DNA of 43,078 nucleotides from a virus, in IMG/VR virus record IMGVR_UViG_3300045988_169798, positions 1 to 43,078 of that record; one strand, 5' to 3'. Shown here piece by piece: positions 1-33,052 of the stretch. The stretch's first letter is position 1, and each line of letters begins with the position of its first letter. Made by a program: the position numbers and the translations under genes. The notes under the pieces are model-generated. The model saw nothing but the letters and a program-made list of their open reading frames with translations. It ran no database searches and was not told the DNA's origin.

Positions 1-55
1 GTCATGTGGAAAACTCCCAAACCTGTGGAAAACCCTGTGGATAACCCTGTGGAAA
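1..55. repeat. Terminal direct repeat copy 1, identical to 43024..43078. Either a circular-assembly overlap or true terminal redundancy
   Basis: nt 1-55 (gtcatgtggaaaactcccaaacctgtggaaaaccctgtggataaccctgtggaaa) match the last 55 nt base for base. Gene order wraps sensibly (HNH ... terL). Confidence 0.95.
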
Positions 56-56
56 A
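5..56 (+). promoter_or_regulatory. Four same-orientation TGTGGA(A/T)AA boxes (DnaA-box-like iterons); candidate terminase, regulator or DnaA binding array
   Basis: TGTGGAAAA at 5-13, 24-32 and 48-56; TGTGGATAA at 36-44. The last three lie on an exact 12-bp register inside CCTGTGGAWAAC units. TGTGGATAA is the reverse complement of TTATCCACA. Confidence 0.6.
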
Positions 57-62
57 CTCCGC

Positions 63-91
63 TAGGCATGAGGTATATCACAGCATATAAT
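63..91 (+). promoter_or_regulatory. Putative sigma70-type promoter feeding a leaderless transcript that starts at ATG 99
   Basis: -35 TAGGCA 63-68, 17-nt spacer, -10 TATAAT 86-91, then exactly 7 nt to ATG 99. Confidence 0.35.
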
Positions 92-98
92 AGGGGGT

Positions 99-380
99 AT
101 GACAACCCACACAAACACCACAATCACCATATACGAACCAAACAGCCCCACACCAATCACAGACGCCACAAACACCAACAACCCCACCCTCATACGCCAA
201 GCACTCGCACACAAAATCGCCACCGTCATAGACGACCCAAGAACAGGCGACACAGCACTCACAAAACTCACAGCACAACTCATACAAATCACAGACCAAC
301 TCGCCACCACACAAAACGAAAACACCACCACACACACCACCGACCTTCCGGACGAAACACAAACCTGGGACGGCATCTAA
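99..380 (+). CDS. Hypothetical 93-aa protein; possible small terminase subunit by position only
   Basis: The ORF ends 1 nt before the terL start. The central part looks helical (PTLIRQALAHKIATVIDD...LTAQLIQITDQLA). The flanks are low-complexity T/N-rich because the DNA is A+C rich. Confidence 0.45.
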   Translation: MTTHTNTTITIYEPNSPTPITDATNTNNPTLIRQALAHKIATVIDDPRTGDTALTKLTAQLIQITDQLATTQNENTTTHTTDLPDETQTWDGI

Positions 381-381
381 A

Positions 382-1875
382 ATGAGCGAAAAACACCTCA
401 GCGAAATCGCCGCCCACCTCACCCTCCCAGAAAACATCACACACACCGCCTGGCCGCCAGTCCAACGCCGCCTCACAGAAATGCAATACCCCCTCGACGT
501 ATGGCAACAAGACTGGCTCAAAGCAATCCTCGCAAAAAGAAAAGACGGCCACTACGCCGCCAGCATCGACGGAATCCAAGCCAGCATCCCCCGACAGGTC
601 GGCAAAACATACACAATCGGCGGCCTCACATTCGCACTCGCCACCCTCCACCCAAACTACTTCGTACTCTGGACCGCACACCGCACACGCACCGCAGACG
701 AAACATTCAACGACATGAAAGGAATGGCACAAATCCCCGACATCGCCCCCTACGTAAACAAAATACGGCAAGCGAACGGTCAACAAGCCATCCTCTTCAA
801 CAATGGATCACGAATCCTGTTCGGAGCCCGTGAAGGCGGATTCGGACGCGGATTCCACGGCGTAGACATGATCCTCTTCGACGAAGCCCAGATCCTAGGC
901 GCCGCCGCACTAGACGACATGATCCCCGCCACAAACACGGCCCCAGACCCGCTCATCATCAAAATCGGAACACCACCAAAACCAAAAGACCCATCCGAAG
1001 CATTCAGCGAATTCCGCAACCTAGCCCTGCAAGGCGAAATAAAAGACGGCCTCTACCTCGAACTGGCCGCCGACTACGACGCTAACAGCGACGACAGGAA
1101 ACAATGGGAAAAAGCCAACCCATCATACCCGCGCCGCACACCCGAATCTGCCATTCTAAGAATGCGACGGCAGCTCGGAGAAGAATCATTCCGACGCGAA
1201 GGCCTCGGAATCTGGGACCGCGCCAACGACAAGCTCGCAATCGACCCAGTCACCTGGAACACCGCCACAATACGACCCGAAAACACGCCGAGCGGTATGC
1301 GATGGTGCGCCGCAATCCGATTCGCACCCGACGGATCAACCTGCGCCCTAGCCAGAGCAGGACACAAAGCCAACACGCCCACACACGTCGAACTATGCAC
1401 ACACCAAGGCGTCCGCCGCATGAACGAAGGCACCCAATGGATCATTGACTACATTGCGGACACCAAAGACAGATGGGCGCAAATCATCGTAGACGGAAAA
1501 TACGGTGCCGGAGACACAATCGAAAGACTACGCACCATCGGAGTACGCCCCCAAGTCATCATCACACCCACAATCACGCAAATCATAGACGCCTACAGCA
1601 TGCTAGACGCCTCACTACGCGAAAACACAATCACACACCTAGACGACATGCAACTGAGAACCGAGGCCGCGTCCGCGACGCCACGCCCAATCGGAACGTC
1701 AGGAGGATGGGCACTACAAGCACCGCCCGGCGCCACCGTAGCCGGCCTAGAAGCCTGCACGCTCGCAATGTGGGCCGCACGCACAACAAAAAGACGGCCC
1801 CGTTACAAGCCCTATGATAAAATCGAGAACGCCAATAATAGTAATGATCGTGGCGGCGGAGTACTGTTCCTATGA
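382..1875 (+). CDS. terL: Terminase large subunit
   Basis: 497 aa. Walker A-like IPRQVGKTY, Walker B-like MILFDEAQ, C-terminal nuclease-type region. ATGA overlap with the portal start. Confidence 0.9.
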   Translation: MSEKHLSEIAAHLTLPENITHTAWPPVQRRLTEMQYPLDVWQQDWLKAILAKRKDGHYAASIDGIQASIPRQVGKTYTIGGLTFALATLHPNYFVLWTAHRTRTADETFNDMKGMAQIPDIAPYVNKIRQANGQQAILFNNGSRILFGAREGGFGRGFHGVDMILFDEAQILGAAALDDMIPATNTAPDPLIIKIGTPPKPKDPSEAFSEFRNLALQGEIKDGLYLELAADYDANSDDRKQWEKANPSYPRRTPESAILRMRRQLGEESFRREGLGIWDRANDKLAIDPVTWNTATIRPENTPSGMRWCAAIRFAPDGSTCALARAGHKANTPTHVELCTHQGVRRMNEGTQWIIDYIADTKDRWAQIIVDGKYGAGDTIERLRTIGVRPQVIITPTITQIIDAYSMLDASLRENTITHLDDMQLRTEAASATPRPIGTSGGWALQAPPGATVAGLEACTLAMWAARTTKRRPRYKPYDKIENANNSNDRGGGVLFL

Positions 1876-3488
1876 CTGAAATTTATCCTGACGACGGACG
1901 ACTCGTTAATGCTACGCCGGCACCGACCCGCATTTCCGGACTCCCCGACGACGACCATGCGACATTCCTGCAACTGTGGCAGAAATGGCAGCAGCACTCA
2001 AATAAAAACAAGCTGCTCTCCGTCTACTATGACGGCCACCGCGCTTTCCAAGATTTGGGTATCAGTATTCCGCCGCAAATGACGCGCACCAAAGCCGCGT
2101 TGGGATGGCCTCAGAAAGTCGTCACCATGCTCGCCCGCCGGCACGTATTCGAAGGCTACTCTCTAAACGGCGCACCCGACGCATTCGAAGCCAACGAAAT
2201 CTTGTCAGCCAACAATTATGATCTTGATCTCGCACAGGCAATAACGTCCGCCTACAAGCATTCTTTCTCACTGCTCACCGTGACACGCGGGGACGAGACC
2301 ATTGGCGAGCCGCCTGTCGTCGTGCAGGCCCGTGACGCAGAATGGTCCGCCGCACTATGGGACACGCGCCGCCGCGTAATCGAAGCCGCCCTCACAATCG
2401 ATCAGACCGACAAGTACGGGCAGCCGGCCGGCGCCATCATGCACACCCCCACCGCCATTTGGCGAATCGACGCCAAAGAGAACGGCAGCGGCTGGAAGGC
2501 CGAAAAGCTTGGCGACACGCCCAACCGCATTTTCGTCGAAGCACTCTGCTACGACCCGCAACTGAACCGGCCACTGGGGCACTCACGAATCACCCGCGAA
2601 GTAAGATATCTCACGGACGCTGCAGTGAGAACAATGGTCCGCGCGGAAACGTCCGCAGAATTCTTCTCCTCACCACAGCGCTACGTGCTCGGCGCAGAAA
2701 GAGCAGATTTCGCCGGCCAAGACAGATGGTCCGCAATCATGGCCCGCGTCCAAGTCCTGGAGCCGAACGAAAACGGCGACATCCCGTCGGTTGGTCAATT
2801 CTCACAAATGACCATGAGCCCTCACCTGGAAATGTACCGTCAGCTGGCCCAGAATTTGTGCGCAGCCACAAACCTCCCCCAGTCCGCTATCGGGGTATTC
2901 GCGGAGAACCCCGCCTCGGCTGAAGCGATGCAAGCGGCTGAGGCGGCGCTCGCGGACGAAGCCGAATACCAATGGCGCATTTTCACCGCACCACTACGGC
3001 GCACACTGCAGAACATCATTATGGTCAGAGACAAACTCGACGAACCTCCTGCCGAGTCGTGGAAAACCTCGGTGAAGTGGACGCCCGCCCGCTACTCCTC
3101 GCCGTCGTCTGCAGCCGATTTCGCGGTCAAAATGGTGTCCGCGTTCCCGTCATTGCAGGAGTCGCAGACTCTCATGCGGCGTGCCGGACTCACTGAGGAC
3201 GATCTCGCAGATATCAACGCTGAGAATCGTAAAAAGAATGCGGTGTCGTTGCTTGATCGCGCTCTCGCCGCCACGAATAACGGGAACACTGCGGACGAGA
3301 ATGACGAGAACGCCGAGAACACTGACAACGATGACGCGGCCAACAATAACGGCGACGACAATGCCAGCAACGCCAGCAACAGCAACGGCAGTGGCAGCAA
3401 TCTGAACCTTAATAACACGCCCAATACAAGGAACAGGGTTAAGCGCAACATTAAACTGCCAGGCGGCACCAAAACACCAATAAACTAA
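1872..3488 (+). CDS. Portal protein
   Basis: 538 aa immediately after terL. Typical portal size and position. Asn/Asp-rich low-complexity C-terminus. Confidence 0.85.
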   Translation: MTEIYPDDGRLVNATPAPTRISGLPDDDHATFLQLWQKWQQHSNKNKLLSVYYDGHRAFQDLGISIPPQMTRTKAALGWPQKVVTMLARRHVFEGYSLNGAPDAFEANEILSANNYDLDLAQAITSAYKHSFSLLTVTRGDETIGEPPVVVQARDAEWSAALWDTRRRVIEAALTIDQTDKYGQPAGAIMHTPTAIWRIDAKENGSGWKAEKLGDTPNRIFVEALCYDPQLNRPLGHSRITREVRYLTDAAVRTMVRAETSAEFFSSPQRYVLGAERADFAGQDRWSAIMARVQVLEPNENGDIPSVGQFSQMTMSPHLEMYRQLAQNLCAATNLPQSAIGVFAENPASAEAMQAAEAALADEAEYQWRIFTAPLRRTLQNIIMVRDKLDEPPAESWKTSVKWTPARYSSPSSAADFAVKMVSAFPSLQESQTLMRRAGLTEDDLADINAENRKKNAVSLLDRALAATNNGNTADENDENAENTDNDDAANNNGDDNASNASNSNGSGSNLNLNNTPNTRNRVKRNIKLPGGTKTPIN

Positions 3489-3496
3489 TAATCATC

Positions 3497-4222
3497 ATGC
3501 TGTCAACCGCAGAAATCGGGGCATACGGTCGAGCAATAGACTCACTCACCACACTCGCCCAAAATGATCTACACACACTATGGGCGCACGCCGCTAGACA
3601 ACGCCCCGAGCAAGCCCGCGATCTTCTACTCGAAATCATGCCCGCCCTCGTCGACCAATACGGCAGTGCAGCCGCCGCAATCGCCGACGAATGGTACCGA
3701 GACATGCGCCTAGACCAACACATCCCCGGAGACGCCCCCGCAGTACAAACATCACTCACACCACAAGGCGAAATAGACGACAGCGTCAGATTCAGCGCAG
3801 GAGCACTATACGCCGGAAACCCCGACATCGCCCTATCCTATCTGACCGGTGCGCTCATCCGATACGTCAGCGACGGCGCCCGCTCGCAAATCGCAGACAT
3901 GACGTGGGCCGACCCGGAAGCAATGGGCTGGGAAAGACGAACACGTAACCCCCAAGCATGCAATTTCTGCGTCATGCTCACAATGAGCGAATGCTACTAC
4001 CGCAGCCAGGGGACCGCATCATTCGGGGCGCACGACAATTGCAAATGTGTTGCAGTCCCCGCCTGGGATCCGACCTCACATGAAGTCCCCGCGAAAGCAT
4101 ACGCGCTCGCAGCCAGACACAAAACTGAGAAAGGTCGCAAACGACATCGCGAACTCGTCTCATCGTGGATAGACACACACCAGGAAGAGCTCGCGGAATG
4201 GCGCACTAGGCCAATCGAATGA
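3497..4222 (+). CDS. MuF / SPP1 gp7-like minor head (head morphogenesis) protein
   Basis: Follows the portal. C-terminal CNFCVML...HDNCKCV cysteine/histidine motif typical of the Phage_Mu_F family. Confidence 0.7.
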   Translation: MLSTAEIGAYGRAIDSLTTLAQNDLHTLWAHAARQRPEQARDLLLEIMPALVDQYGSAAAAIADEWYRDMRLDQHIPGDAPAVQTSLTPQGEIDDSVRFSAGALYAGNPDIALSYLTGALIRYVSDGARSQIADMTWADPEAMGWERRTRNPQACNFCVMLTMSECYYRSQGTASFGAHDNCKCVAVPAWDPTSHEVPAKAYALAARHKTEKGRKRHRELVSSWIDTHQEELAEWRTRPIE

Positions 4223-4225
4223 TTG

Positions 4226-4234
4226 TGCTACAAT
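4226..4234 (+). promoter_or_regulatory. Putative extended -10 element (TGCTACAAT) upstream of the scaffold/capsid genes
   Basis: TGn + TACAAT at 4226-4234 in the MuF-scaffold intergenic region. A GGGCT-gcaa-AGCCC hairpin lies downstream. Confidence 0.3.
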
Positions 4235-4331
4235 GCATAAACAAGGGTCACTGAAGGAGGGCTGCAAAGCCCAAAAGTAGTTGCCTGAAAACATTACAAT
4301 AACCGCACGGTCGAAATATAGGAAACGCCCA

Positions 4332-4817
4332 ATGAGCGACAATGCTGCCAGCGACACGCCGGCCGATAACAGCGCCACTAACAGCAATAACACTTCCCAG
4401 GGGGAGGGCAACGCTGCCGCTAGTAAGCCTGAAATCGACTGGAAGAGTGAGTCCCGTAAGTGGGAGAATCGCGCCAAAGAAAATCGGCGCGCCGCCAACG
4501 AACGAGACGAACTCGCAAAGGCAATCGGCGACAAGGATGCCACGATTGAGGCCCTAAAGGCCAAGGTTGCGGATTTCGAAACCGCCGCTAAAGTACGCGA
4601 ATGGTCCGCCAACGCGGCCGCAGAATACGGTATCAGTGCCGATTTGATTCGAGGGACTACCGAGGAAGAAATCAATGCGCATGCTGCCGCAATCGCCAAA
4701 GCATTGCACGACGCTAAGCCGTCCGTTGCCCCCGTGGTGCCGCAGGCCGGAGCCACGCCCGACAATGATGGCGGCAATCTTGCGGAGTTCGCTCGGAATG
4801 TTTTCGCCGGCGACTAA
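4332..4817 (+). CDS. Scaffolding protein
   Basis: Charged, Ala/Glu/Lys-rich, helical 161-aa protein directly upstream of the capsid gene. ATG 4332 preferred over the TTG at 4281 (AGGAAA 7 nt upstream). Confidence 0.6.
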   Translation: MSDNAASDTPADNSATNSNNTSQGEGNAAASKPEIDWKSESRKWENRAKENRRAANERDELAKAIGDKDATIEALKAKVADFETAAKVREWSANAAAEYGISADLIRGTTEEEINAHAAAIAKALHDAKPSVAPVVPQAGATPDNDGGNLAEFARNVFAGD

Positions 4818-4876
4818 AACACACTAGCCGCTATTCTAAAAAGTAAAACACTAGAAAGAAACGGAAACCAACTAAA

Positions 4877-5809
4877 ATGGCCGTGTTTGATTCAGGCAAG
4901 GCGAAGGTCCTCATGCCTCGGCAGATCGCCGACGGTATCATTGCTCGCACCCAGACTCTCTCCACCGTCGCTAAGCTCAACGGCGGAATCCCCATGACCT
5001 TCGGCGACGTGGACATTATCACGTTCGATAATTTCCCGCGCGCCGAGTTCGTTGACGAGGGTGCTGAAAAGGCGCCCACGTCCGGTGAGTTCGGTTACGT
5101 GACCGCTAAGCCGCACAAGGCGCAGGTCACTATGCGATTTAACGAGGAGGTCCAGTGGGCCGACGAGGACTATCAGCTGGACGTCCTCAACCAGCTCGCC
5201 CAGAAGGGCAGCGAGGCGCTTTCCCGCGCCCTCGACCTCGGCCTTTACCACCGTGTTAACCCCCTGACGGGCGCCGTTATCGACGCGTGGACCAACTACC
5301 TGACCTCCACCACCAAGAGCGTCGAGATCGGCACTACGGAGATGGACCAGGCGATCCGCCAGGCCGCCGGTCTGCTCATTAACGACAATGACGCGCCGAT
5401 TACCCCCACTGGCCTTGCGCTTGCCCCGTCCGCCGTTTGGGCGCTCGGCAGTCTCCAGACCAAGAATGCCGACGGTTCCCCCTCGGGTACGCCGCGTTAC
5501 CCGCAGATCGGCCTCGGCGTCGACATTGACAACTTCATGGGGCTCCCGGTCGCTGCTGGAAACACGGTTGCCGGCAAGCCCGAGGCGACCACCGCCACCA
5601 ATGTCGAGGGCATTGTCGGTGATTTCGTCGACGGTATCCGCTGGGGAATTCAGCGGTACCTGCCGCTCGAGATTATCCGTTTCGGTGACCCGGACGGTCA
5701 GGGCGACCTGAAGCGTCGGAACCAGATTGCTCTGCGTCTCGAGATTCTGTACGCCTGGTACGTTTTCTCGAACAAGTTCGCGACGATTAAGACCAAGGCC
5801 GGCGCCTGA
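4877..5809 (+). CDS. Major capsid protein (HK97-fold type)
   Basis: 310 aa, in the position after the scaffold. Sequence character typical of the Phage_capsid family. Ordinary highly-expressed-gene codon usage. Confidence 0.85.
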   Translation: MAVFDSGKAKVLMPRQIADGIIARTQTLSTVAKLNGGIPMTFGDVDIITFDNFPRAEFVDEGAEKAPTSGEFGYVTAKPHKAQVTMRFNEEVQWADEDYQLDVLNQLAQKGSEALSRALDLGLYHRVNPLTGAVIDAWTNYLTSTTKSVEIGTTEMDQAIRQAAGLLINDNDAPITPTGLALAPSAVWALGSLQTKNADGSPSGTPRYPQIGLGVDIDNFMGLPVAAGNTVAGKPEATTATNVEGIVGDFVDGIRWGIQRYLPLEIIRFGDPDGQGDLKRRNQIALRLEILYAWYVFSNKFATIKTKAGA

Positions 5810-5877
5810 TAAAATCGCCATAAAGAAACAAAACACAACCCATCCAAAACAAGTTTTTCCCAGGGGCGATTTCGGAA

Positions 5878-6087
5878 ATGCGATCCTACAAGCACCGAGA
5901 CCACGACATTGTGATCCATCTCGCAGACGACCACAATGTGGAGCTCGGAGACGAATACACCGAAATCACTCCCGGGAATGATGGCGCTGGCGGGGCAGAC
6001 GAGCCCACCTCCTCCTCCCCTCGTACTGCCCCGCCGGCACCCGCCCCTCGTCGGGGACGAGGCCGCCCCAGAAAGACTGCCAAGTGA
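5878..6087 (+). CDS. Hypothetical 69-aa protein with an AT-hook-like C-terminus
   Basis: Acidic N-terminal half and a PRRGRGRPRKTAK tail. Its stop overlaps the GTG start of the next gene (GTGA). Confidence 0.45.
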   Translation: MRSYKHRDHDIVIHLADDHNVELGDEYTEITPGNDGAGGADEPTSSSPRTAPPAPAPRRGRGRPRKTAK

Positions 6088-6569
6088 TTCCTGAGGATAT
6101 TATTCCGTTCGCCACGGTCGAAGACCTGGAAGCCAGGTGGCGGGCGCTCTCAGACAATGAGCGCATTCGCGCCGACGTACTCCTCGCCGACGCCACCGAC
6201 CTCATCGTGTCGAAATGCCCCCGCTGGGAATCCGCCACGCCTCGCACACGAAAGCGTGTAGCATGCGCCGTGGTGCGTCGCGCAATGCAAGGCGGAGACG
6301 CTATCGGCGGCGTCACAGACAGTGGCGGCGGAATCTACTCCGAGCCCCACGGGATTATCGCGTCAGAATCACACACAACAGGGCCGTTTAGCGATCAATT
6401 CACGTATCAGAACCCCGAGGGCGGCCTTTACCTGAAGCGCGAGGAAAAGGACGCTCTCGGAGGCTCTGGTGGTGCGTTCGAGGTGGACCTCCTGCAAGAT
6501 TATGATGTGCGATCTGCCACGGACCAGTTGATCGAGGACATTAATGCGATTAGCGGGCAGGAACCGTAA
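6084..6569 (+). CDS. Head-tail adaptor (gp6-like connector)
   Basis: 161 aa. The N-terminal FATVEDLEARWRALSDNERIRADVLLADATDLI resembles the Phage_connect_1 family. Position fits. Confidence 0.65.
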   Translation: MIPEDIIPFATVEDLEARWRALSDNERIRADVLLADATDLIVSKCPRWESATPRTRKRVACAVVRRAMQGGDAIGGVTDSGGGIYSEPHGIIASESHTTGPFSDQFTYQNPEGGLYLKREEKDALGGSGGAFEVDLLQDYDVRSATDQLIEDINAISGQEP

Positions 6570-17481: not shown

Positions 17482-18183
17482 ATGCCTAACACTAGGTGGA
17501 CCGGCGGTGTCGTCCCCACAGTAGACGATAATCTTATTGAAGCCTGGGACGCGTACGATGATTCTGCCGGTAGGGTTATGCCGGCTGCGTCCGTGGCTGC
17601 GGCACGGGTTATGCTTGCGGCAGCACCATCCGGGGCAGTATCGAAAGCACGCCCTGCAGTTTTCATTATTGACGACATTCTGTACACGGCTGACGGCTCC
17701 AAGGCCGGTGATGGATCATTCAACATCAACCCTGCGAACTCGTTCAGTGGTGTGCTTTACAGGCATCGTGATAATACGAACGGCCGCGGGCGTCCGACCT
17801 CGGATCATGCCACTTATACGTGGGGTGACGGTATCGTTACCCTGCCTATTAAGAGCCTTATGGAGTTCTCGCTTGACGTGTGCGTGAGTATTGCGCACGA
17901 GGATTATCATTCCGAGGAGGAGAAGGACAGGGCGGTCGGCTCATACTTCTTCGGGTTCAAGCTTGACAACAGGGGTATTTGGCAGACTGAGATTCAGTAC
18001 AATCGCACGTTTATGACGCATCATATGCAGTGGCGCCTTTCCGTGGAAGCCGGTTCACACAGGGTTGCTTACACTACGGCGGGCAGTTATGGTGCGGACC
18101 CGTACTGGCATTACGATGGCGGCGTGTTCCCTGGCACTGTGTTTACGGTGGCTACTCTTGGTGCGACCCGCGTTGACCTGTAA
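17482..18183 (+). CDS. Minor tail protein / fibre-associated protein
   Basis: 233 aa, AGGAGAA RBS, within the tail-tip block. Confidence 0.45.
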   Translation: MPNTRWTGGVVPTVDDNLIEAWDAYDDSAGRVMPAASVAAARVMLAAAPSGAVSKARPAVFIIDDILYTADGSKAGDGSFNINPANSFSGVLYRHRDNTNGRGRPTSDHATYTWGDGIVTLPIKSLMEFSLDVCVSIAHEDYHSEEEKDRAVGSYFFGFKLDNRGIWQTEIQYNRTFMTHHMQWRLSVEAGSHRVAYTTAGSYGADPYWHYDGGVFPGTVFTVATLGATRVDL

Positions 18184-20165: not shown

Positions 20166-20416
20166 GAGACGCTCCGCAGAAGTAGGTTGCAACGCATCGC
20201 AGAATGCTCCGGGCCACAGGCTTCCTCGTGAGTCCATCCCGCTGAGACGCCGCGCTTCGTCGTCGCTGTGACACCGCCATCGGTGACCTCGATCTTCCCC
20301 GACGGGGAATCAATGACGGTAACTCCCGCACGGTCTGAAATGCGGGGCGACGGGATCGTGTCCCGCAATTCCTTAACAATCGCCAACGCGATTTCCCGCC
20401 GATCATTCTTGCTCAT
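20162..20416 (-). CDS. Hypothetical protein
   Basis: 84 aa. The ATG shares 1 nt with the dcd stop (TAATG). Confidence 0.5.
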   Translation of the reverse strand: MSKNDRREIALAIVKELRDTIPSPRISDRAGVTVIDSPSGKIEVTDGGVTATTKRGVSAGWTHEEACGPEHSAMRCNLLLRSVS

Positions 20417-20934
20417 TAGTCTACCTCCCGAGCGGACGGCGTAACCCCGGCCTGCCCTTGATAATGTGAGCCCAGACCATTGGTGCCGTACGGCATACTG
20501 GCGGGCCTGTCCAAGTCCTCGAAAGCAATCTGCGCAATCCTATCCCCCGGGAAGAGAAGAGCGGGTTTAGTGGAGTGCAGGTTAGCGATCTCCAGAGTCA
20601 CGTTTCCTTGGAATCCTGGGTCAATGTATCCCGCGGACACGTGGACGAGAATTCCGCGGCGCGCCCACGATGATTTGCCTTCCACCCTAGCTACAAGGTC
20701 GGCAGGCACATTGACTTTCTCCTGGGTGGACGCGAGAATAAACTCACCCGGCAACAGCTCATAACCATTCTCGCCGATGGTGACATTCTCATCACCGTGG
20801 CGGTAGGCGATAATGTTTTCGTCTAGCCGCACTTCCACCGACGCCGGCTGGATAGACAACGGCTTGCGCCAGTCGGAGATGAGCTCACCCCAATCGATTC
20901 TGCGTCGGAGAGTAAAATCACTCAGTGTAGCCAT
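20416..20934 (-). CDS. dcd: dCTP deaminase (possibly bifunctional dCTP deaminase/dUTPase type)
   Basis: 172 aa. Motifs VSAGYIDPGFQGNVTLEIANL and C-terminal SHYQGQ typical of Dcd/Dut-fold enzymes. Confidence 0.8.
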   Translation of the reverse strand: MATLSDFTLRRRIDWGELISDWRKPLSIQPASVEVRLDENIIAYRHGDENVTIGENGYELLPGEFILASTQEKVNVPADLVARVEGKSSWARRGILVHVSAGYIDPGFQGNVTLEIANLHSTKPALLFPGDRIAQIAFEDLDRPASMPYGTNGLGSHYQGQAGVTPSAREVD

Positions 20935-21389
20935 TGCGGTAGTCCCTCGTCTTCGTTTTCCTTGATCACATGGACCGTGTAACCTTTATCGCATAGGATT
21001 GCTTTGGCTTCAAGTGCAAGGGCGAGCTTCTCTCCCGGGATGATTCCTACCGTGTCCTTACCGCGCTCCGACAGTACGATTGCACAGACGTACGTACCAT
21101 CGTCCAGTGAGTCGCTGTAAGTGAGCACATACCCGCTTATCTCATCCGAATATGTGCACCTAGTAAAAGTGATCCTTCCTTCCCGCCATGAACGCAAGGC
21201 GAGTGTTACTCCCTGAACAAATTGAACGGTGTGCATAAGCCCACGGATCGCGCCAGGCGGATCGATAGCGTAACTCCTGATACTGAAGTTACAGTCATGG
21301 GCATGCATAAACGCAGCTGCACCCCACAGTTCACCACATTTTGCCAAATCGACGAAAGCAATATCAACAATATTCTCCACAATACTCAC
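20922..21389 (-). CDS. Hypothetical protein
   Basis: 155 aa. GTG start overlaps the upstream TGA (GTGA). Confidence 0.5.
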   Translation of the reverse strand: MSIVENIVDIAFVDLAKCGELWGAAAFMHAHDCNFSIRSYAIDPPGAIRGLMHTVQFVQGVTLALRSWREGRITFTRCTYSDEISGYVLTYSDSLDDGTYVCAIVLSERGKDTVGIIPGEKLALALEAKAILCDKGYTVHVIKENEDEGLPQWLH

Positions 21390-22390
21390 GCTTCCGGAAT
21401 ATAGCCGTTGAGGCGATCGTATGAAATGGCGGACGTGAACTCTGTGAGCCGGTCTCGAATTTCTCTGGCGCGATCCTCTGGGGTGAGCTGTCTGTTGATA
21501 GTGTCCCAGTGGACGTTTCGCAGAATTGCGATCGCCGTCTGGGCTCCCTGCTTGGCGACGAGTTCACGAAGATACCCCGCCGCCTTTCCCATGTCAATAT
21601 TCTCATCGACACCATCCTTGTGGCCGGCCCTGAGAATGTACTTCAAAGCACTACTGGTCAGATAGTCTTTGTCGCGAATAAAGGCGATGGGGGCGGGGTC
21701 AAGGGCCGCATAATGTGATGAGTGAGTTACCTCATTCTCGTGCACATTATTCTCGGCGCACCCGCCATTCTTCTCTGTGACATAGAGAGTGTCATCGCAC
21801 AAGGTCAACTCATAGCGCTGCTCGTCGAACGTGAGAAACGCTTCTCCCCCATTCTCGCCCTCATACCAAATACACCATTCGCCAGTGAAATACCTGCAAA
21901 CCTTCCTGACAGGCGCATAATAGCTGTCAGAAACACAAAAGCAAACCGGACCGTTCGTGAATTTCAGCTCGCAGCCAGGGTCAGTATGATACCTGCCAAT
22001 ACGCCGCCAACACCAACCATCATACTTCCGCTCCAGAGAAACATAGCGACGGCTCCAGCAATCTACTCGCCATTTACAAAAAGAATTGCGGCGGACGCGC
22101 ACCTCCCAGAAGCCATCATGCGACACTACCTTCAAAACATACTCGTATACGCCACTCGGGTAGTAAATCTTCTCACACTCATCATCTACAGGTGACACTA
22201 CATAATCTCCTTTCTCTGTCTTCGTGATTGAATACTCGTCGTATTTGAAATAGTGTCTTCGCTCTGCACCGCCATGAATAGAATCGAAACCAATCCCTTT
22301 GCTGTCGCCGGTTTGCGATATGATTCTCTCTTTACTGCCGTCCGGCAAGTACAGCCAAACCATTTTCAAAAACACCATGTCCACAGCCAT
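21386..22390 (-). CDS. Two-domain protein: Cys/Trp/Tyr-rich N-terminal region plus a DUF3310-like C-terminal domain
   Basis: 334 aa. C-terminal SHYAALDPAPIAFIRDKDYLTSSALKYILRAGHKDGVDENIDMGKAAGYLRELV fits the HY..I..I....KY..R..K....D..KA..YL pattern. Confidence 0.6.
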   Translation of the reverse strand: MAVDMVFLKMVWLYLPDGSKERIISQTGDSKGIGFDSIHGGAERRHYFKYDEYSITKTEKGDYVVSPVDDECEKIYYPSGVYEYVLKVVSHDGFWEVRVRRNSFCKWRVDCWSRRYVSLERKYDGWCWRRIGRYHTDPGCELKFTNGPVCFCVSDSYYAPVRKVCRYFTGEWCIWYEGENGGEAFLTFDEQRYELTLCDDTLYVTEKNGGCAENNVHENEVTHSSHYAALDPAPIAFIRDKDYLTSSALKYILRAGHKDGVDENIDMGKAAGYLRELVAKQGAQTAIAILRNVHWDTINRQLTPEDRAREIRDRLTEFTSAISYDRLNGYIPEA

Positions 22391-23402: not shown

Positions 23403-23414
23403 GTTATGTGTGTG

Positions 23415-23708
23415 TCAGCGCTCCAGCCACCACTCGGCCAGGTAGGCGATGGTCTCGTCAGTCAGTGCGGAGAGTCCGTCGTGGACGATGGTGAATCCGT
23501 CGGCATCGTACTGCCAGAGTCCCCAGGAGACGACGTCGTCGCACACGTGGAGTCCGAGTGCCTGTCCACCGTCGGTGGTGCGTCGCATGAGGCCGATGGT
23601 CTCGCCGGTCTCGTCCACCCAGTAGTCCGTGTCGCCCCAGGCGTTGGCGGCAGTGCCGACGGCGTAGGCGATGTCGGTGTCGGTGGTGATGTTCGTAGTG
23701 GTGGTCAT
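23415..23708 (-). CDS. Small acidic hypothetical protein in a GC-rich island
   Basis: 97 aa, D/E/T/W-rich, G/C-ending codons, own downstream hairpin. Confidence 0.55.
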   Translation of the reverse strand: MTTTTNITTDTDIAYAVGTAANAWGDTDYWVDETGETIGLMRRTTDGGQALGLHVCDDVVSWGLWQYDADGFTIVHDGLSALTDETIAYLAEWWLER

Positions 23709-23838
23709 TGTCTTGTCCTCTCCGTCCCTGGCTGGAAGCTTGTCCTCCCTGCCGATGTCTTAATCATGCTCTCCCGTGCGTCATGGATCAACCCTACGTG
23801 GTGGTGGCCCATCCCACAAAACCAATGTGTGTGAGGTA

Positions 23839-23868
23839 TTGACAGATACTGGACCAATGTGGTATACG
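23839..23868 (+). promoter_or_regulatory. Putative promoter of the lysis cassette
   Basis: -35 TTGACA 23839-23844, 18-nt spacer, extended -10 TGG-TATACG 23860-23868. Confidence 0.45.
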
Positions 23869-23915
23869 CGCGCGCACGTACCTATATACGCTACGGACGC
23901 ACCCAGGCGCTCATG

Positions 23916-25412
23916 ATAAAATTATCACCACCGAAAACCTTTACGAAAGGCGGTGCAAAATTGGCAGATTCCGTCACAGAATATGCTGCGTCGGAAATGA
24001 AATATTGGTGCACCACAGGCGACTACGGGGGCACTGGATACGCCCAGGACAACCGCTGGACTTGCTACTGGAATTCCAATGATGCCGGTTGGAAAACGGG
24101 CCCTGGCGACATGGATTGCAGTAGCGGCGTAGCGGGCGCCTACAATATTGCATTTCACAATGTTTGGGGAACAGGTTGGGATGATCCGATCATGTTCCCG
24201 CGGACCGGCGAAACATGGACCGAAACCCTGAATTCCCTGGCCGCGAATCGCGGTTTCATGGATATTGGGGACACGTGGTACGGGTCTACGCCGTCGGGAG
24301 GATTCCATGTCGGCGACTTGATCCTGAAGACTACCGGAGACGGCGGACATGTCGCAATGTGCGTGCGCGAAGACGATGGTTCATTCAACGCGGGCGACCC
24401 GCTCCTCGCTGAGGCGTGGATTAATGAGAATGGCGAAATTGCGGAAGGGGCGATGGGGGATCAGACCGGCTACGAGACGCACGTAGTCCGGTACAGTAGT
24501 CACCCGATGACCGTCGCGGCCTCGTGGTCCACGTGCATCCGTTTCGGAAAACGGACCGATGCCGATAGCGGGCATGAGTCTGCCGGCTCATATCGCCTTT
24601 CTTCAATTCAGGAGGCCGTTCTCAGGGCCGCCGATGCGGAGAATTGCCCGTGGTGGGCCGCCCTGGCGTGCCTGTGGATGGAAACCGGCGAGCGTGGTGC
24701 GAACATTTATGGACACGACGCTGGCGGTGCTGGCCCGCACGGTGAGGAAGTGACCGAGGAGAATTTCCGCGAATTTCTTGCGGCGCTTCGAGACGGCGAA
24801 ACCTCAAACGGGGTTGGTCCGTTGCAGATTACGTATCCGGGTTATTTCTTTGATGATCCGGATCGTGAATGGTGGATGCCGGAAAGGTCGTCTGAGGTCG
24901 GATGCCGTATTCTTCGTGATCTTATCAACGCTGAAGGCGATTCTTATGAGGCCTTGAAGCGTGTTGGGTCGCGGTATAATTCAGGAAATCCGTATGACGC
25001 GTATGAGTCTTATGGGATTCTTTTCAGTAATCGTTGCAAGTCTTGGTATGAGTATGGCCGCCCTTCCGGGGGCGCCGGAGAGGAATTTTGGGATATGAGC
25101 GAGGGTGTTGATCTGCTCAGGGAGATTCGCGATCTTTTCCGTAGTGGAAAGGCGGGGGATCACTTCGCGGGCGACATGAATTGGTACGCCAAGGCGACCT
25201 ATGAGGAGGTTAAGTCTATTCACGCGTCCGTGGATCAGATTCTGCATTCTGTGACTCCGGGGCAGGAGAATGTCCGTGAGGCGGGTGCGATTTATGGTGC
25301 CGTGAATGAGATTCGTAAGGCGGTGTCGACGCCGTCGTCTTTGCAGGCGCATGATGGTGTCGCGGAGTCTCCTACTCCGGCTGAGTCTCCTGCTCCGGCG
25401 GAGAATTCTTGA
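23916..25412 (+). CDS. Endolysin: N-terminal Cys/His peptidase (NlpC/P60 or CHAP-like) plus a lytic transglycosylase-like domain
   Basis: DCSSGVAG ... GDGGHVAMCV in the N-terminal domain; WMETGERG ... NGVGPLQITYPGY in the central domain. Start is uncertain: the GTG at 23859 lies inside the predicted promoter, so ATG 23916 is used. Confidence 0.75.
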   Translation: MKLSPPKTFTKGGAKLADSVTEYAASEMKYWCTTGDYGGTGYAQDNRWTCYWNSNDAGWKTGPGDMDCSSGVAGAYNIAFHNVWGTGWDDPIMFPRTGETWTETLNSLAANRGFMDIGDTWYGSTPSGGFHVGDLILKTTGDGGHVAMCVREDDGSFNAGDPLLAEAWINENGEIAEGAMGDQTGYETHVVRYSSHPMTVAASWSTCIRFGKRTDADSGHESAGSYRLSSIQEAVLRAADAENCPWWAALACLWMETGERGANIYGHDAGGAGPHGEEVTEENFREFLAALRDGETSNGVGPLQITYPGYFFDDPDREWWMPERSSEVGCRILRDLINAEGDSYEALKRVGSRYNSGNPYDAYESYGILFSNRCKSWYEYGRPSGGAGEEFWDMSEGVDLLREIRDLFRSGKAGDHFAGDMNWYAKATYEEVKSIHASVDQILHSVTPGQENVREAGAIYGAVNEIRKAVSTPSSLQAHDGVAESPTPAESPAPAENS

Positions 25413-29212: not shown

Positions 29213-29953
29213 TTAGTGGCTAGTGATGTAATTGTGGATCTTGGTCATGTTTGGGTTTCCCATTGCTGGCGGGAAACCGCGCGTCTGTTGCTTTGTCACA
29301 ACGTTGGGTTTGCGAGTGTACAGGACTGGCACGGTGATTTCTTCCCCGTCCCCATTGTCCACGTTCGCCCATTCCATGTAGCCGACGAAGTTAAACAAGG
29401 CGGGGATGCGCTGCCCAGACTTCTGCCCCTCAAATGACGGGGCGATGAAGGTTTCCCCAGTGACTTCATTGCTTTCGCGTGCGGAATGCGTGATAGCAAT
29501 GAATGAAATGTCGGGGGGGTCCAGGAATACGCTGATCGCCTTCAACAGGGAATCGTACACTGCCCGCCATTTCGTCCACGTGTCATTCGACACGGCCTCA
29601 TAGTGAGACAGGATGAGTTCCTGGCACTTGTCTAGCGTGTCGAACACTACAGTTTTGTAGGGGAATTTTGCAAGATTGCGTGCAATATTGTCGCAAAGAT
29701 TGGCGCAATCAACCCACTTGTCGCAATGCACGACAGTGATGTTTGCAGGGTTCCCCCAATCCCGTACTGGGAGCGTGCCGGATTCGAAATCAACGTACAA
29801 GACGGGCGACATGTCGTCCACCTGTGACGCCGTAGCTGCGAGCGATGTTTTGCCGACGCCACTCACACCATGAATAAGCATGTTGAAATGATTATTCTGC
29901 TCCGGGTTCACGACCGTCATTCCGAGACGGGCAAGAGTGTCCTCGAAAGTCAT
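29213..29953 (-). CDS. RecA-fold AAA ATPase (AAA_24 / Sak4-like recombination protein)
   Basis: Walker A HGVSGVGKTS, Walker B VVFDTLD. ATG 29953 preferred because the GTG at 29965 overlaps the AGGAGG RBS. Confidence 0.7.
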   Translation of the reverse strand: MTFEDTLARLGMTVVNPEQNNHFNMLIHGVSGVGKTSLAATASQVDDMSPVLYVDFESGTLPVRDWGNPANITVVHCDKWVDCANLCDNIARNLAKFPYKTVVFDTLDKCQELILSHYEAVSNDTWTKWRAVYDSLLKAISVFLDPPDISFIAITHSARESNEVTGETFIAPSFEGQKSGQRIPALFNFVGYMEWANVDNGDGEEITVPVLYTRKPNVVTKQQTRGFPPAMGNPNMTKIHNYITSH

Positions 29954-29968
29954 ATTATGTTTCACCTC

Positions 29969-30718
29969 CTAACCGTTAATGTTGTAGTTTTTGAAAGCTT
30001 CTGTGTGGCGCTCATGTGAGCAGTACCAACATAGGGGTGACGATTGGAGACTGTCAACCCTATCGTCTTGTGACCTTGCTCTCTCCCAAATGTTTTGGAG
30101 TCTCTCTATGGCCGCGAGCGCAACGTCCTGCCGCCACGGAAAAGAGAACTCGCAAATACTGTCCGGCACGACCTCTACACTACAGTCCCTTGGGAGAGCA
30201 ACAATAGAACAGTGGGCTATGTCATAGCCGAGTTGTGTGAGGCCGTACCCGTAGAGCATGATTTGAATGTAGTATTTACGAAATTGTGCGCCCGCTATCG
30301 TGTTAGCGAACTGAGGCAACTCACCGTCCCATTTGATACCCTTCCGGAATGCGGAAATCTTTTTCCGTGAGAGCAGCTTCCAGTCCAGGACCGTCGCCGC
30401 CGCAATATCGAAGCGATCCACACTCCCAGAAACACTCCCATAGTCTTCAAGATCACATACCTCTACTCTCTGTTCCACTAGAACATTCGGGTCATTCTTC
30501 GTGCGCGATTCCGCGAAAGCATGAAACGCGGTGCCCAGGAAGGGCGCCAACGGTGAGCCCCCACCCTCCATATTGTGCGGGATGCCGAGGAGTTTGTCGG
30601 CAATGCATCGTTCGCAATCATCCCCGATTTCACTTACACCGATGCGCGTTTGTTTGTCACGTTCGGTTGGGGCGAAAACATTACTGACCGCTGTTGTGGC
30701 GGCCGGGCTCAAATTCAA
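29969..30718 (-). CDS. PD-(D/E)XK Cas4/RecB-like exonuclease
   Basis: N-terminal CERC and C-terminal CWYCSH cysteines, VLDWK (D-x-K) and QIMLYGY (QhxxY) motifs. TTG 30718 has an AGGAGG 10 nt upstream. The alternative ATG 30820 would overlap the upstream gene by 140 nt. Confidence 0.7.
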   Translation of the reverse strand: MNLSPAATTAVSNVFAPTERDKQTRIGVSEIGDDCERCIADKLLGIPHNMEGGGSPLAPFLGTAFHAFAESRTKNDPNVLVEQRVEVCDLEDYGSVSGSVDRFDIAAATVLDWKLLSRKKISAFRKGIKWDGELPQFANTIAGAQFRKYYIQIMLYGYGLTQLGYDIAHCSIVALPRDCSVEVVPDSICEFSFPWRQDVALAAIERLQNIWERARSQDDRVDSLQSSPLCWYCSHERHTEAFKNYNING

Positions 30719-32982: not shown

Positions 32983-33006
32983 CTGCCCTTTCCTTTCCAA
33001 TATGAG

Positions 33007-33042: not shown

Positions 33043-33052
33043 GTCGTGGTGG

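Follow-up and report, generated by a model that had tools for sequence, protein, structure and literature searches.

In an abundant, uncultured phage whose host is probably a mouth Actinomyces, G and T are almost absent from the sense strand of the packaging genes and of the non-coding sequence flanking the genome ends. The window analysed, a 43,078-nt stretch of DNA, is a circular assembly, the final 54 nt being identical to the first 54 nt. Bias was expressed as AC3, the A-or-C fraction among third codon positions, and the comparison set comprised 52 related genomes at ~9% sequence difference, with polymorphism counted over 53 genomes. The biased DNA forms one block from ~41100 through the cos end (~42954) to ~1650, together with a second stretch at 3446-4400 (Table 1). 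In AC3, terL (497 codons) lies ~15 binomial SD over the genome mean, and the per-gene values are the same in the 52 relatives; thus neither chance nor faulty assembly accounts for the pattern. The explanation favoured here, which is judged to have about an even chance of being correct, is ongoing selection on nucleotide content that bars G and T (U) from the sense strand and so yields a strand that does not pair with itself.

Table 1. Features of the biased regions and their neighbours
Feature	Position	Strand	Remarks
Direct repeats CTGTGGAAAAC/CTGTGGATAAC	1-60	+	Run on from 42970-43078
Promoter-like site TAGGCA-17-TATAAT	63-91	+	10/12 match; 7 nt before terS ATG
terS, terminase small subunit	99-380	+	PHROG 1459; AC3 0.96
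terL, terminase large subunit	382-1875	+	Pfam Terminase_6N; AC3 0.85
Portal	1872-3488	+	Pfam SPP1_portal; AC3 0.60; outside the regime
VG15/MuF-like head protein gene	3497-4222	+	Pfam VG15; AC3 0.77
Replication genes: SNF2 helicase, primase, DUF3987 helicase	31527-35840	-	Mirror-image bias
Non-coding leader upstream of HNH; block start	41100-41399	+	T ~0.11, A ~0.40
Hairpin copy 1	41178-41237	+	Invariant core ACGTGCGTGCTCGC..GCTGCGCGCGCAC
HNH endonuclease gene	41400-41744	+	Pfam HNH/HNH_5, PHROG; AC3 0.92
Non-coding spacer	41745-42450	+	A+G patches and A+C patches
Hairpin copy 2, downstream of HNH	41862-41922	+	Core as in copy 1, outer stem different
Conserved non-coding region, ~90% identity	42451-42953	+	Ends at the cos cut
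cos site	42940-42970	.	Virion DNA left end ~42954 (5'-TGCCCATCCCTCCC)

The bias is most extreme in terS, where AC3 ranges from 0.94 to 0.98 among 50 relatives, G3 and T3 are near 0-3%, and the N-terminus contains many Thr, Asn, His and Pro residues. Third positions in terL consist of A3 0.34, C3 0.50, G3 0.11 and T3 0.04. The base shift of the bias relative to other genes amounts to +0.19 for A3, -0.17 for G3, +0.12 for C3 and -0.16 for T3. At 4-fold sites terL has a GC skew of ~-0.65 and an AT skew of ~+0.8; terS reaches ~-1 and +1. An earlier note on this DNA had counted 52 A+C among the 60 nt at positions 121-180, which a recount confirms, and had described the opening terL codons as ending in A or C throughout, as indeed do all of the first 21. 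It had also rightly placed the MuF-like and HNH genes with terL, and the 5' half of the portal, the scaffold and the capsid among genes with ordinary codons (AC3 0.50-0.60 in portal, scaffold and capsid, against 0.85 in terL). Scaffold AC3 is 0.54, that of the tape measure 0.53, and that of the capsid, here of the HK97-type Phage_capsid family, 0.50 with A3 ~0.04.

Compositional regimes alternate along the genome at roughly module scale, with terS/terL, MuF/VG15 and HNH in one regime and portal, scaffold and capsid outside it. The mosaic at module resolution that had been proposed is therefore sound in outline, but not all of its steps lie at gene borders. Change-point analysis of AC3 averaged over the population returned segments at 101-714 (0.93), 717-1647 (0.82), 1650-2807 (0.61), 2810-3443 (0.44) and 3446-4397 (0.73), beyond which AC3 takes values of 0.37-0.75 in short stretches and then falls to 0.43. 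The change points are thus near gene borders rather than on them. Of the switches that the earlier note had placed within tens of bp at borders, the one at ~3490, between portal and VG15, is real and sharp (change point at 3446) and alone lies within tens of bp of a border, that at ~4230 is present but diffuse (4180-4700), and that at ~1870 is in fact a step at ~1650, within terL and 225 nt ahead of its stop. This last step follows a gradual fall through terS-terL; within terL, AC3 starts at 0.93-0.94, is 0.82 mid-gene and drops to 0.61-0.7 beyond ~1650. The portal is itself heterogeneous (0.61 in its 5' two thirds and 0.44 further on), and the profile is not monotonic, dipping in the portal and rebounding in VG15. 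The biased block also extends past the region outlined in the earlier note.

This A+C-rich, T-poor block runs unbroken from ~41100 over HNH, 1.2 kb of non-coding DNA and then terS/terL. The leader upstream of HNH contains polypurine tracts and two strong hairpins, and its variation is without codon periodicity, that of the HNH gene having a periodicity of 2.9. The outer stem of hairpin copy 1 covaries among relatives. The spacer, 706-1120 nt long and 20-30% divergent among relatives, has T at 0.06-0.10 in 16 of 16 genomes. Since this fast-evolving spacer is low in T, and since A+C is raised at first codon positions of terL (0.56 vs 0.44-0.46 in six orthologues), the bias is not codon-specific. 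In the conserved region that follows there are AT-rich repeats, both iteron-like and inverted, at 42483-42591, as well as a homopolymer run of G/C. About ten independent contigs begin at the cos sequence or a few bases away, and in one relative (L022) an Illumina adapter remnant is joined directly to the cos-end sequence. The direct repeats on either side of the window junction are probably the terS binding region. The TATAAT of the promoter-like site is conserved in relatives, and this putative promoter would produce a leaderless or near-leaderless terS-terL mRNA. The order HNH - cos - terS - terL - portal, with HNH at the very right-hand end of virion DNA, resembles the HNH-terminase cos modules of the HK97 gp74 type. 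This likeness concerns gene content and not composition, and no description of a compositional peculiarity of such modules was found in the literature searched.

Polymorphism points to active maintenance of the regime by selection. In a site-frequency test based on major and minor alleles that were not outgroup-polarised, in a structured metagenomic sample, 49% of the synonymous G/T minor alleles in biased genes had ≤2 carriers, compared with 23% of A/C minor alleles at G/T-major sites (Fisher p=1.3e-4) and 37% in an A<->C control (p=0.02 vs the G/T value); unbiased genes were symmetric (36% vs 33% rare minor alleles, p=0.42). Variants of the C>T type occur at 60% of C sites in biased genes and at 91% in unbiased ones (p=1e-19), and C>A variants are commoner in biased genes (56% vs 32%, p=1e-5), hence total diversity is not lowered. 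At synonymous sites of the biased genes, A<->C exchange is thus free, and G/T alleles are fewer and lower in frequency. Some of this signal can also arise from biased gene conversion or from mutation with a strong bias, and selection against G/T appears weak, variants being suppressed only ~2-fold. The selection reading is further supported by recurrence across the wider phage family, in which A/C bias marks the cos-adjacent HNH gene at genome GC contents of 52-71% (AC3 0.76 in L066, 0.90 in L068, 0.76 in L069, 0.80 in L072, 0.79 in Arthrobacter phage MrSmee and 0.64 in Rothia phage Spartoi), and an unannotated HNH ORF in L070 has third positions that are nearly pure A/C.

The predicted folding energy of the sense RNA per 120 nt is -6 for terS, -18.5 for HNH, -23 for terL and -28 for VG15, against -31 for the portal and -43 for the capsid among unbiased genes. 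The leaders fold better than shuffles (z -5.0 for 41100-41399, and -2.7), only through discrete hairpins. Compared with their own synonymous-codon permutations, terS, terL and VG15 were no less structured (z about 0); composition accordingly explains the low structure in full, and avoidance of structure is indistinguishable from avoidance of G/U for another reason. In the leader and first genes of the block, start triplets, SD-like motifs and TANNNT motifs of the -10 type are depleted ~threefold, and internal stop triplets only ~1.7-fold. In being C-rich, G-poor and predicted almost unstructured as RNA, with a C/G ratio of 1.8-1.9 across terS-terL (1.3-1.7 in the leader), the block resembles rut regions. 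Rut sites, however, are untranslated and ~80 nt long, and U depletion is not among their features, whereas the property seen here spans ~4 kb, is mostly translated and includes loss of U.

Selection might instead act on the DNA, keeping the block free of self-complementarity and palindromes, either for structure-free single strands when the cos flanks are resected or unwound, or for the avoidance of palindromic restriction sites, or inversely oriented asymmetric ones, next to the genome ends. This is considered doubtful. The block is roughly symmetric about the cos cut (~1850 nt on the right-end side and ~1720 nt on the left), the phage has genes for a Sak4 annealing protein and for an exonuclease, and in MrSmee and L068 composition flips exactly at cos, a property of the physical end and not of a transcript; yet the left genome end in relatives has the opposite sign, and no consistent end rule emerges. 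Although 6-bp palindromes number 4.5/kb in terS-terL against 11-19/kb elsewhere, the block has no shortage of them on its right-end side (15.6/kb), strong, deliberate hairpins lie inside it, VG15 is 3.5 kb from cos with the unbiased portal between, and avoidance of restriction sites in only ~12% of the genome would give little protection. The minus-strand replication genes have a coding-sense AC3 of 0.24-0.36, hence an A+C-rich plus strand, and their polymorphism indicates selection favouring G/T in the coding sense. This mirror image would fit a cause at the level of the DNA strand, against which count the G/T-rich coding strands found on both strands, plus-strand genes included.

Alternatively, the minus strand of the block may more often be single-stranded, through strand-displacement replication, end resection or another cause, such that C>T and A>G deamination drives the plus strand towards A/C. 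The base changes do look like GC3-conserving transitions, non-coding DNA is affected, terS-terL contains a gradient, and a two-arm skew extends around the circle with switches near 9900 and 31500. In vertebrate mitochondria such a bias is mutational, arising from single-strandedness of the H strand, and is genome-wide and graded. The mitochondrial L strand is likewise A+C-rich (PMC1794132, PMC3269015), with very low G at third positions of the sense strand of most genes, an effect on amino-acid composition and a positional gradient. Unlike in mitochondria, the phage bias is confined to stepped blocks, its depletion of T exceeds even that of G, and the asymmetry required by the terS values exceeds the mitochondrial level. 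Were mutation alone to hold the base ratios, asymmetries of roughly 4-fold (A/G) and 12-fold (C/T) would be needed; among rare non-synonymous variants in the 53 genomes, the per-site G>A/A>G ratio is 1.06 in terS, terL and VG15 and 1.30 in portal, scaffold and capsid, and the T>C/C>T ratio 0.56 and 0.34, respectively. As the spectra of biased and unbiased genes are alike, there is no regional mutation bias. Moreover, non-coding linkers retain G at 0.17-0.24, in polypurine tracts, where synonymous sites have 0.10, which speaks against mutational pressure from G to A and is in line with selection for any non-pairing alphabet. Together with the raised A<->C polymorphism, the suppressed transitions to G/T and the non-monotonic profile, this makes the mutational account decidedly unlikely. 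The strand skews of bacteria and phages (T7, adenovirus-type end-initiated) share the strand-specific asymmetry, the two-arm pattern and the flip at the ends in relatives, but the asymmetry in this phage is much stronger and bounded in blocks, it runs the other way from the usual G+T richness of coding or leading strands, and the rare-variant spectrum does not indicate a mutational origin.

Tuning at the codon or tRNA level is also improbable. A- and C-ending codons, which U34 and G34 tRNAs would read by strict Watson-Crick pairing, would set how strongly low-copy enzymes (terminase, HNH, MuF) are expressed relative to structural proteins from the same late transcript, or make the biased genes independent of particular tRNAs. 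The biased genes do encode enzymes or minor proteins and the unbiased ones abundant structural proteins, much as in expression-linked phage codon heterogeneity, where structural genes are host-optimal and enzyme genes differ. Capsid, scaffold and major tail genes use host-type optimal codons (C/G/T-ending, A3 ~0.05), and choice within purine-ending families is exactly opposite, with Lys AAA at 0.94 and Gln CAA at 0.86 in biased genes against AAG at 0.89 and CAG at 1.00 in the capsid set, which also avoids the ATA, AGA and CTA used by the former. This choice runs against translational optimisation, so that the enzyme genes are not merely unadapted but at the opposite extreme. C-ending codons are nevertheless optimal too, and the genes are uniformly neither rare-codon nor optimal; T-ending codons, which the capsid set readily accepts (T3 0.19), are nearly missing from terL (0.04). 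The extreme extends over first positions and non-coding DNA, no tRNA genes were found in the phage genome, and change points within genes (1650, 2810) are awkward for a gene-by-gene expression rationale, a weakness that the favoured explanation shares.

Phage genomes are mosaic, and the earlier note had implied different evolutionary origins for the biased modules. Change points that disregard gene borders resemble recombination breakpoints, some terL relatives carry SU10_MCP in place of Phage_capsid, and G/T is slightly commoner in tip genomes than in the consensus (0.81 vs 0.85), compatible with some decay. Nevertheless, terL and portal share the same nearest outgroups, Actinomyces and Schaalia prophages, at equal identity of 57-65% aa (terL/portal 59/60% in Schaalia sp. 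ZJ405, 60/57% in S. hyovaginalis and 57/57% in Actinomyces sp. MRS3W), the relatives retrieved are as far from VG15 as from the portal, and no donor phage with a biased terL was found, outgroup terL genes having AC3 of 0.25-0.58 (0.77 in L071, through C3 only). As the regime is also actively maintained rather than neutrally decaying, and the HNH bias recurs whatever the genome GC, unameliorated modules from a compositionally different donor lineage are scarcely credible, and for terL versus portal largely refuted; separate origins are not supported by the sequences compared.

Under selection against G/T on the sense strand, the selected block would begin in the rightward leader at ~41100, pass through HNH, cos and terS, fade in terL at ~1650 and return over VG15/MuF, selection acting wherever the protein or a required hairpin can do without these bases. 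In coding DNA the alphabet would be A+C, since a codon that ends in a pyrimidine must take either C or U and, once C is taken, G becomes the base to avoid; either A+C or A+G would serve in non-coding linkers. The sense strand would thereby be written in alphabets unable to self-pair, with T and G concentrated solely in a few conserved hairpins. We infer that non-pairing of the sense RNA is the selected property and that the late sense transcript is the most likely beneficiary: its leader and first genes would be almost without secondary structure, it would be depleted in U/G-dependent signals and palindromes, and its designated hairpins may be insulated against mispairing. The A/C-only packaging block is a new, extreme form of compositional and codon bias.

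The packaging genes of this phage are written on a sense strand that avoids G and T; the pattern described in the earlier note is confirmed, and it extends further than was reported there. The counts quoted in that note were correct on recount of the sequence, and its division of the genes holds when the A+C fraction at third codon positions (AC3) is taken gene by gene, with 0.77-0.96 in the biased genes (terS 0.96, HNH 0.92, terL 0.85, VG15 0.77) versus 0.50-0.60 in portal (0.60), scaffold (0.54) and capsid (0.50); the tape measure gene stands at 0.53. Base fractions at the four-fold sites of terL are A 0.39, C 0.47, G 0.10 and T 0.04, and those of terS hold neither G nor T (0.00 each). Gene by gene, the same AC3 values recur in 50-52 relatives, for biased genes (terS 0.94-0.98, terL 0.77-0.86, VG15 0.65-0.81) and unbiased ones (portal 0.48-0.61, capsid 0.38-0.56). 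From about 41100 the plus strand is A+C-rich, and foremost T-poor, across HNH, a 1.2-kb non-coding stretch and the cos site and on into terS and terL, without a break.

Change-point analysis, run on the population-averaged AC3 signal, returned segments at 101-714 (0.93), 717-1647 (0.82), 1650-2807 (0.61), 2810-3443 (0.44) and 3446-4397 (0.73), with lower values beyond. The switches had been described as sharp and placed at gene borders, which stands for the portal/VG15 step but not for terL, where the step falls 225 nt inside the gene after a gradient, nor for the third step, which is diffuse. The profile is thus a mixture of gradient and steps rather than a set of clean module borders. The C-terminal part of the portal (3290-3430) encodes a low-complexity tail rich in Asn, Asp, Gly and Ser, with repeated AAC, GAC, AAT and AGC codons that raise A+C locally, outside the regime. 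A sequencing or assembly artefact is ruled out by more than 60 independent assemblies with common intact reading frames, and the block's long minus-strand ORFs are likewise rejected as overlapping antisense genes, since the periodicity of variation follows the plus-strand frame or is absent.

The last 54 nt of the window repeat its first 54 nt, indicating a circular assembly, and the genome is that of a tailed phage, a circle of 43,024 bp with a GC content of 55%. The minus strand carries most of the early and replication genes. None of the ORFs searched was recognised as an integrase, an Rfam scan of the whole window returned no family at gathering score, and a tRNA/tmRNA scan found zero genes.

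Principal genes of the phage and their positions in the window
Feature	Position	Strand	Remark
terS	99-380	+	
terL	382-1875	+	
Portal	1872-3488	+	
VG15/MuF-like	3497-4222	+	
Scaffold		+	Followed by capsid
Capsid	4877-5809	+	
Tail genes	up to 19621	+	
dCTP deaminase homologue	20416-20934	-	
T7 gp1.7-like kinase	21386-22390	-	
Lysis cassette	23406-25412	+	
Sak4 annealing protein	29213-29965	-	
Exonuclease	29969-30820	-	
SNF2 helicase	31527-32939	-	
Primase	33374-34276	-	
DUF3987 helicase	34269-35840	-	
HNH endonuclease	41400-41744	+	1.2 kb upstream of genome end; Pfam and PHROG matches

IMG/VR holds more than 60 relatives, many from Human Microbiome Project-type samples, whose terL proteins are 94-98% identical. 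Pairwise distance over the first 6 kb is 7.7-12.2% among 53 aligned genomes, and close pairs are absent. When the loci of these relatives (L001-L062) are compared with window 1-6200, intermediate-frequency polymorphism is seen at most four-fold sites; this looks like a star-like or freely recombining population, unless it reflects dereplication of the source collection. The next relatives are prophages and phages of Actinomyces and Schaalia at about 60% terL identity, and the closest cultured phages by terL are Arthrobacter phage MrSmee and Rothia phage Spartoi (49%); no cultured phage exceeded 50% terL identity in the protein search, and the nucleotide search of cultured phages gave short capsid matches only. 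The host is therefore probably an oral member of the Actinomycetaceae. A scan of a genome collection with terL returned only 40% relatives, Leucobacter prophages whose terL bias is opposite (AC3 0.27-0.31).

Two side features of the gene content concern nucleotide supply and the head. The minus-strand region 20416-22390 encodes a protein of the dCTP deaminase/dUTPase family (PHROG 1663, E=1.5e-47) and a T7 gp1.7-like nucleotide kinase together with DUF3310; as judged from gene content, the deaminase homologue and kinase suggest a nucleotide pool reshaped toward dTTP, and the phage has a lower GC content than its likely hosts. Within the capsid gene, two parts (5084-5326 and 5437-5767) are 75-79% identical in nucleotide sequence to Mycobacterium phages Avocado and Cambiare and to Brevibacterium phage Rousseau, and some terL relatives (L066, L068 and L069, more distant family members) carry a different capsid family, SU10_MCP. 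Both observations are evidence that the head module is mosaic, a matter unconnected with the A/C bias.

Synonymous polymorphism differs between the gene sets as expected with A and C favoured. The site-frequency comparison rests on major and minor alleles and is not outgroup-polarised. In the biased genes, A/C-to-G/T variants number 315 versus 62 in the reverse direction, and the former are skewed to low frequency and suppressed about two-fold relative to the unbiased genes: 154 of the 315 G/T minor alleles have two carriers or fewer, as against 14 of the 62 A/C minor alleles at G/T-major sites (Fisher p=1.3e-4) and 56 of 150 A<->C polymorphisms (p=0.02). Allele-frequency classes in the unbiased genes are symmetric (p=0.42). 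C>T variants occur at 60% of C-major sites in biased genes versus 91% in unbiased ones (p=1e-19), and A>G variants at 52% versus 80% (p=4e-5). Biased genes have more C>A variants (56% versus 32%, p=1e-5), and the region is therefore not simply less diverse. Since suppression is only about two-fold, selection per site appears weak. Biased gene conversion is a possible source of the same polymorphism pattern.

The composition is not confined to codons. Non-coding DNA at 41745-42450 varies without codon periodicity, diverges by 20-30% and ranges from 706 to 1120 nt in length among 16 genomes, with T at 0.06-0.10 in 16/16. First codon positions of terL have an A+C fraction of 0.56 versus 0.44-0.46 in six orthologues, and the N-terminus of terS is composed of Thr, Asn, His and Pro. 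The non-coding linkers keep G at 0.17-0.24, often in polypurine tracts, whereas synonymous sites lose it, which argues against a G>A drive. Both behaviours would follow from a rule by which any alphabet unable to pair with itself is acceptable: free sequence would permit A+G or A+C, and in codons the obligatory pyrimidine endings would force C, with G avoidance following.

The predicted folding energy of the sense RNA, in kcal/mol per 120 nt, is -6 for terS, -18.5 for HNH, -23 for terL and -28 for VG15, set against -31 for portal and -43 for capsid, and antisense RNAs of the block have normal predicted folding. T and G are concentrated in three strong hairpins; because of this clustering, the leaders fold better than their shuffles while being mostly unpaired along their length. 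Two hairpins of about 60 nt (41178-41237 and 41862-41922) flank HNH as direct repeats. Both hold an invariant core, ACGTGCGTGCTCGC-ARRGC-TGCGCGCGCAC, with differing outer stems, and across 16 genomes the two sides of the first copy's outer stem vary in a compensatory way (TTGCG/CGCAA, TTGTG/CACAA, TCGTG/CACGA). Neither hairpin matches an Rfam family; each may be a processing site, an attenuator or a cassette boundary. The third hairpin (41306-41362) is almost invariant in all relatives, and its 5' arm, GTGTTAGACGGTG, recurs at 41015-41027 in a divergent regulatory region.

Within terS-terL, 6-bp palindromes are three-fold fewer, start-codon triplets three- to four-fold fewer, and TANNNT and Shine-Dalgarno-like motifs three-fold fewer, and C/G is 1.9; all of these are side effects of composition. 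The excess of C over G at that ratio and the unstructured RNA (-6 to -23 kcal/mol per 120 nt) are properties shared with Rho-utilisation regions. Terminator-like motifs (a hairpin followed by a T-run) in window 1-6000 lie on the minus strand in 12 of 13 cases, eight of them within terS-terL; they are a by-product of the A-rich sense strand and would terminate antisense transcription. A promoter-like site at 63-91 ends 7 nt before the terS ATG, which suggests a leaderless terS message.

The best-supported reading is one of weak, persistent selection on the sense-strand nucleotide alphabet across the cos-spanning packaging block. Most plausibly, the outcome of such selection would be a late leader and a terS/terL/HNH/MuF message that stay unpaired and carry no signals outside designated hairpins. 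The leading rival is a version of this constraint acting on DNA rather than RNA. Synonymous-codon permutation of terS, terL and VG15 gave z of about 0, with no structure avoidance beyond composition and no discriminating power, so that non-pairing and avoidance of G/U for other reasons are inseparable computationally. In the minus-strand replication genes the bias is mirrored (coding-sense AC3 0.24-0.36), and so is the signature of selection in the minus-strand helicase (p=9e-4); this could reflect a constraint on a DNA strand. Because some plus-strand genes also have G/T-rich coding strands (tail gene 17482-18183, AC3 0.38; lysin, 0.39), the mirror bias may instead be a separate, commoner regime.

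The genome ends bear on the same question. About 10 independent contigs have their first base at, or only a few bases away from, 5'-TGCCCATCCCTCCC (window ~42954), and in one relative, L022, an Illumina adapter remnant, CTGAACCGCTCTTCCGATCT, is joined to TGCCCATCCCTCCC; these starts and the adapter junction therefore place cos, the physical left end of the genome, at about 42954, between HNH and terS. Contig starts in L019 and L056 are inverted, hairpin-like chimeras of the TGCCCATCCCTCCC end. The arrangement is that of an HNH-terminase cos packaging module, in which HNH adjoins terS/terL with defined cohesive ends between them. In L068 (~9750), a more distant family member, and in MrSmee (L074, genome ends), plus-strand composition flips abruptly at the HNH/terS gap, which is cos, from A+C-rich on the left (the right genome end) to G+T-rich on the right, and MrSmee terL has an AC3 of 0.25; the 3'-ending strand is therefore A+C-rich at both termini. 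End protection of a Chi-like kind or a telomere-like end asymmetry is rejected from first principles, as the sign of the skew suits one genome end only.

Several elements lie in the DNA around cos. The motif CACACACCGCCATTCC / CCGCCATTC has three copies in the A+C-rich leader (41746-41761, 42040-42051 and 42376-42400) and one inverted copy (40530-40558) in a G+T-rich block beyond the divergent region, and is a candidate for a regulator binding site or for an RNA motif common to two divergent transcripts. That block, about 380 nt at 40520-40900, has the opposite composition (plus-strand T 0.31-0.35 and G 0.27-0.30 in 16/16 genomes), directly follows a strong hairpin terminator (40484-40524) and shows no coding periodicity; read leftwards, it would give an A+C-rich RNA. 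The segment 42440-42620 is AT-rich and well conserved, with iteron-like repeats ATGATGAACATGATGATGATCA and perfect inverted repeats CGTTGATCAATCAT/ATGATTGATCAACG, and could be a replication origin or part of the terminase recognition region.

Next in weight is regional mutation. Its input was approximated, not directly measured, by rare non-synonymous variants (two carriers or fewer among 53 genomes, codon positions 1 and 2), on the premise that protein-level selection on such variants should be independent of membership in the biased set. Per-site rates for A>G, G>A, C>T and T>C are 0.117, 0.124, 0.075 and 0.042 in terS, terL and VG15, and 0.097, 0.126, 0.071 and 0.024 in portal, scaffold and capsid. 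G>A/A>G and T>C/C>T are thus 1.06 and 0.56 in the biased genes and 1.30 and 0.34 in the unbiased ones; mutation alone would require about 4 and 12 to produce the third-position ratios. As the rare-variant spectra of both sets are essentially the same, present-day mutational input, by this proxy, is without regional asymmetry. The A+C-rich sense strand and low G at four-fold sites are shared with the single-strand deamination skew of mitochondrial type, but such skew is expected to bring an asymmetric spectrum, absent here by the rare-variant proxy, and a monotonic positional gradient, whereas AC3 runs 0.93, 0.82, 0.61, 0.44 and then 0.73, and a neutral stretch (38700-41000) interrupts the right arm. 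Replication skew would give two arms of opposite sign that switch at origin and terminus, with a G+T-rich leading strand; a weak genome-wide pattern does switch near 9900 and 31500, about 180 degrees apart, and leaves the extreme values and steps of the block unexplained. The dCTP deaminase homologue was set aside as a DNA mutator, since it is a member of the dCTP deaminase/dUTPase family, which acts on the nucleotide pool, and the variant data show no mutational asymmetry.

Tuning at the level of tRNAs comes next. Translational adaptation predicts the codons of highly expressed genes. Pyrimidine-ending codons of the biased genes do take the optimal C, with T nearly excluded (0.04 of third positions, where the capsid set accepts 0.19), but in the purine-ending families the preference is the reverse of that in the capsid set: AAA 0.94, CAA 0.86, GAA 0.89, ATA 0.19 and AGA 0.26, against AAG 0.89, CAG 1.00 and GAG 0.71, with ATA and AGA absent, in capsid, scaffold and major-tail genes. 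Adaptation should also be confined to synonymous sites, whereas here non-coding DNA and first codon positions are biased. The bias is not a codon phenomenon, and the codon choice is not translational optimisation.

Weakest is mosaic origin, the reading implied in the earlier note by which biased and unbiased modules came from different sources; it is not supported, as terL and portal have the same outgroups at the same identity. Their nearest are common Actinomyces/Schaalia prophages at 57-65% (terL/portal: Schaalia sp. ZJ405 59%/60%, S. hyovaginalis 60%/57%, Actinomyces sp. MRS3W 57%/57%), portal and VG15 are equidistant from six retrieved relatives (~32-35%), and biased and unbiased modules do not differ in phylogenetic affinity as a mosaic island would. 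Outgroup terL genes lack the A/C bias (AC3 0.25-0.58; one, at 0.77, is pure C3 enrichment). Selection-mutation balance is a better fit to the variant counts and frequencies than free decay (amelioration).

The bias has a wider counterpart at HNH. The HNH gene adjoining cos is A/C-biased in every family member examined, with AC3 of 0.76 in L066, 0.90 in L068, 0.76 in L069, 0.80 in L072 and 0.63 in L071 (all more distant members), 0.79 in MrSmee (T3 0.01) and 0.64 in Spartoi, across genomes of 52-71% GC. In L070, an HNH ORF nearly purely A/C at third positions (5599-5928) is uncalled in the source annotation, probably because extreme composition defeats gene callers. A T-poor stretch lies upstream of or over HNH in several relatives (L066, L068-L070), and in L066 and L070 it is a non-coding leader with G/C hairpins. 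The lineage of the window stands at the extreme, with the regime extended past cos to cover terS, terL and VG15 as well.

Synonymous sites and spacers of phages are usually viewed as products of mutation bias and of the host's codon preference. In this phage, a block of several kilobases is nearly 100% A/C at synonymous sites against a host-type codon optimum, and its composition outlasts turnover of sequence and length and bears a population-genetic signature of selection; no description of an A/C-only packaging block was found in the literature searched. Genes of this kind escape gene callers, as did the L070 ORF, give long spurious ORFs in all six frames, and distort composition-based host prediction, detection of horizontal transfer and origin finding. 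We propose, tentatively, that the block is written in non-pairing alphabets (A+C in codons; A+C or A+G in spacers) through selection on the nucleic acid itself, yielding a structure-free message or DNA single strands largely stripped of U/G-dependent signals, with a few insulated, conserved hairpins kept; this would be a new design principle for control of the expression, processing or survival of messages for DNA-cleaving enzymes, recurring around the HNH of many cos actinophages. If confirmed, selection on this block would be among the most clear-cut natural examples in which the target is the bulk nucleotide alphabet and not codons or motifs, and it would offer a tractable system, with over 1000 metagenomic genomes and with cultured relatives carrying the HNH version.
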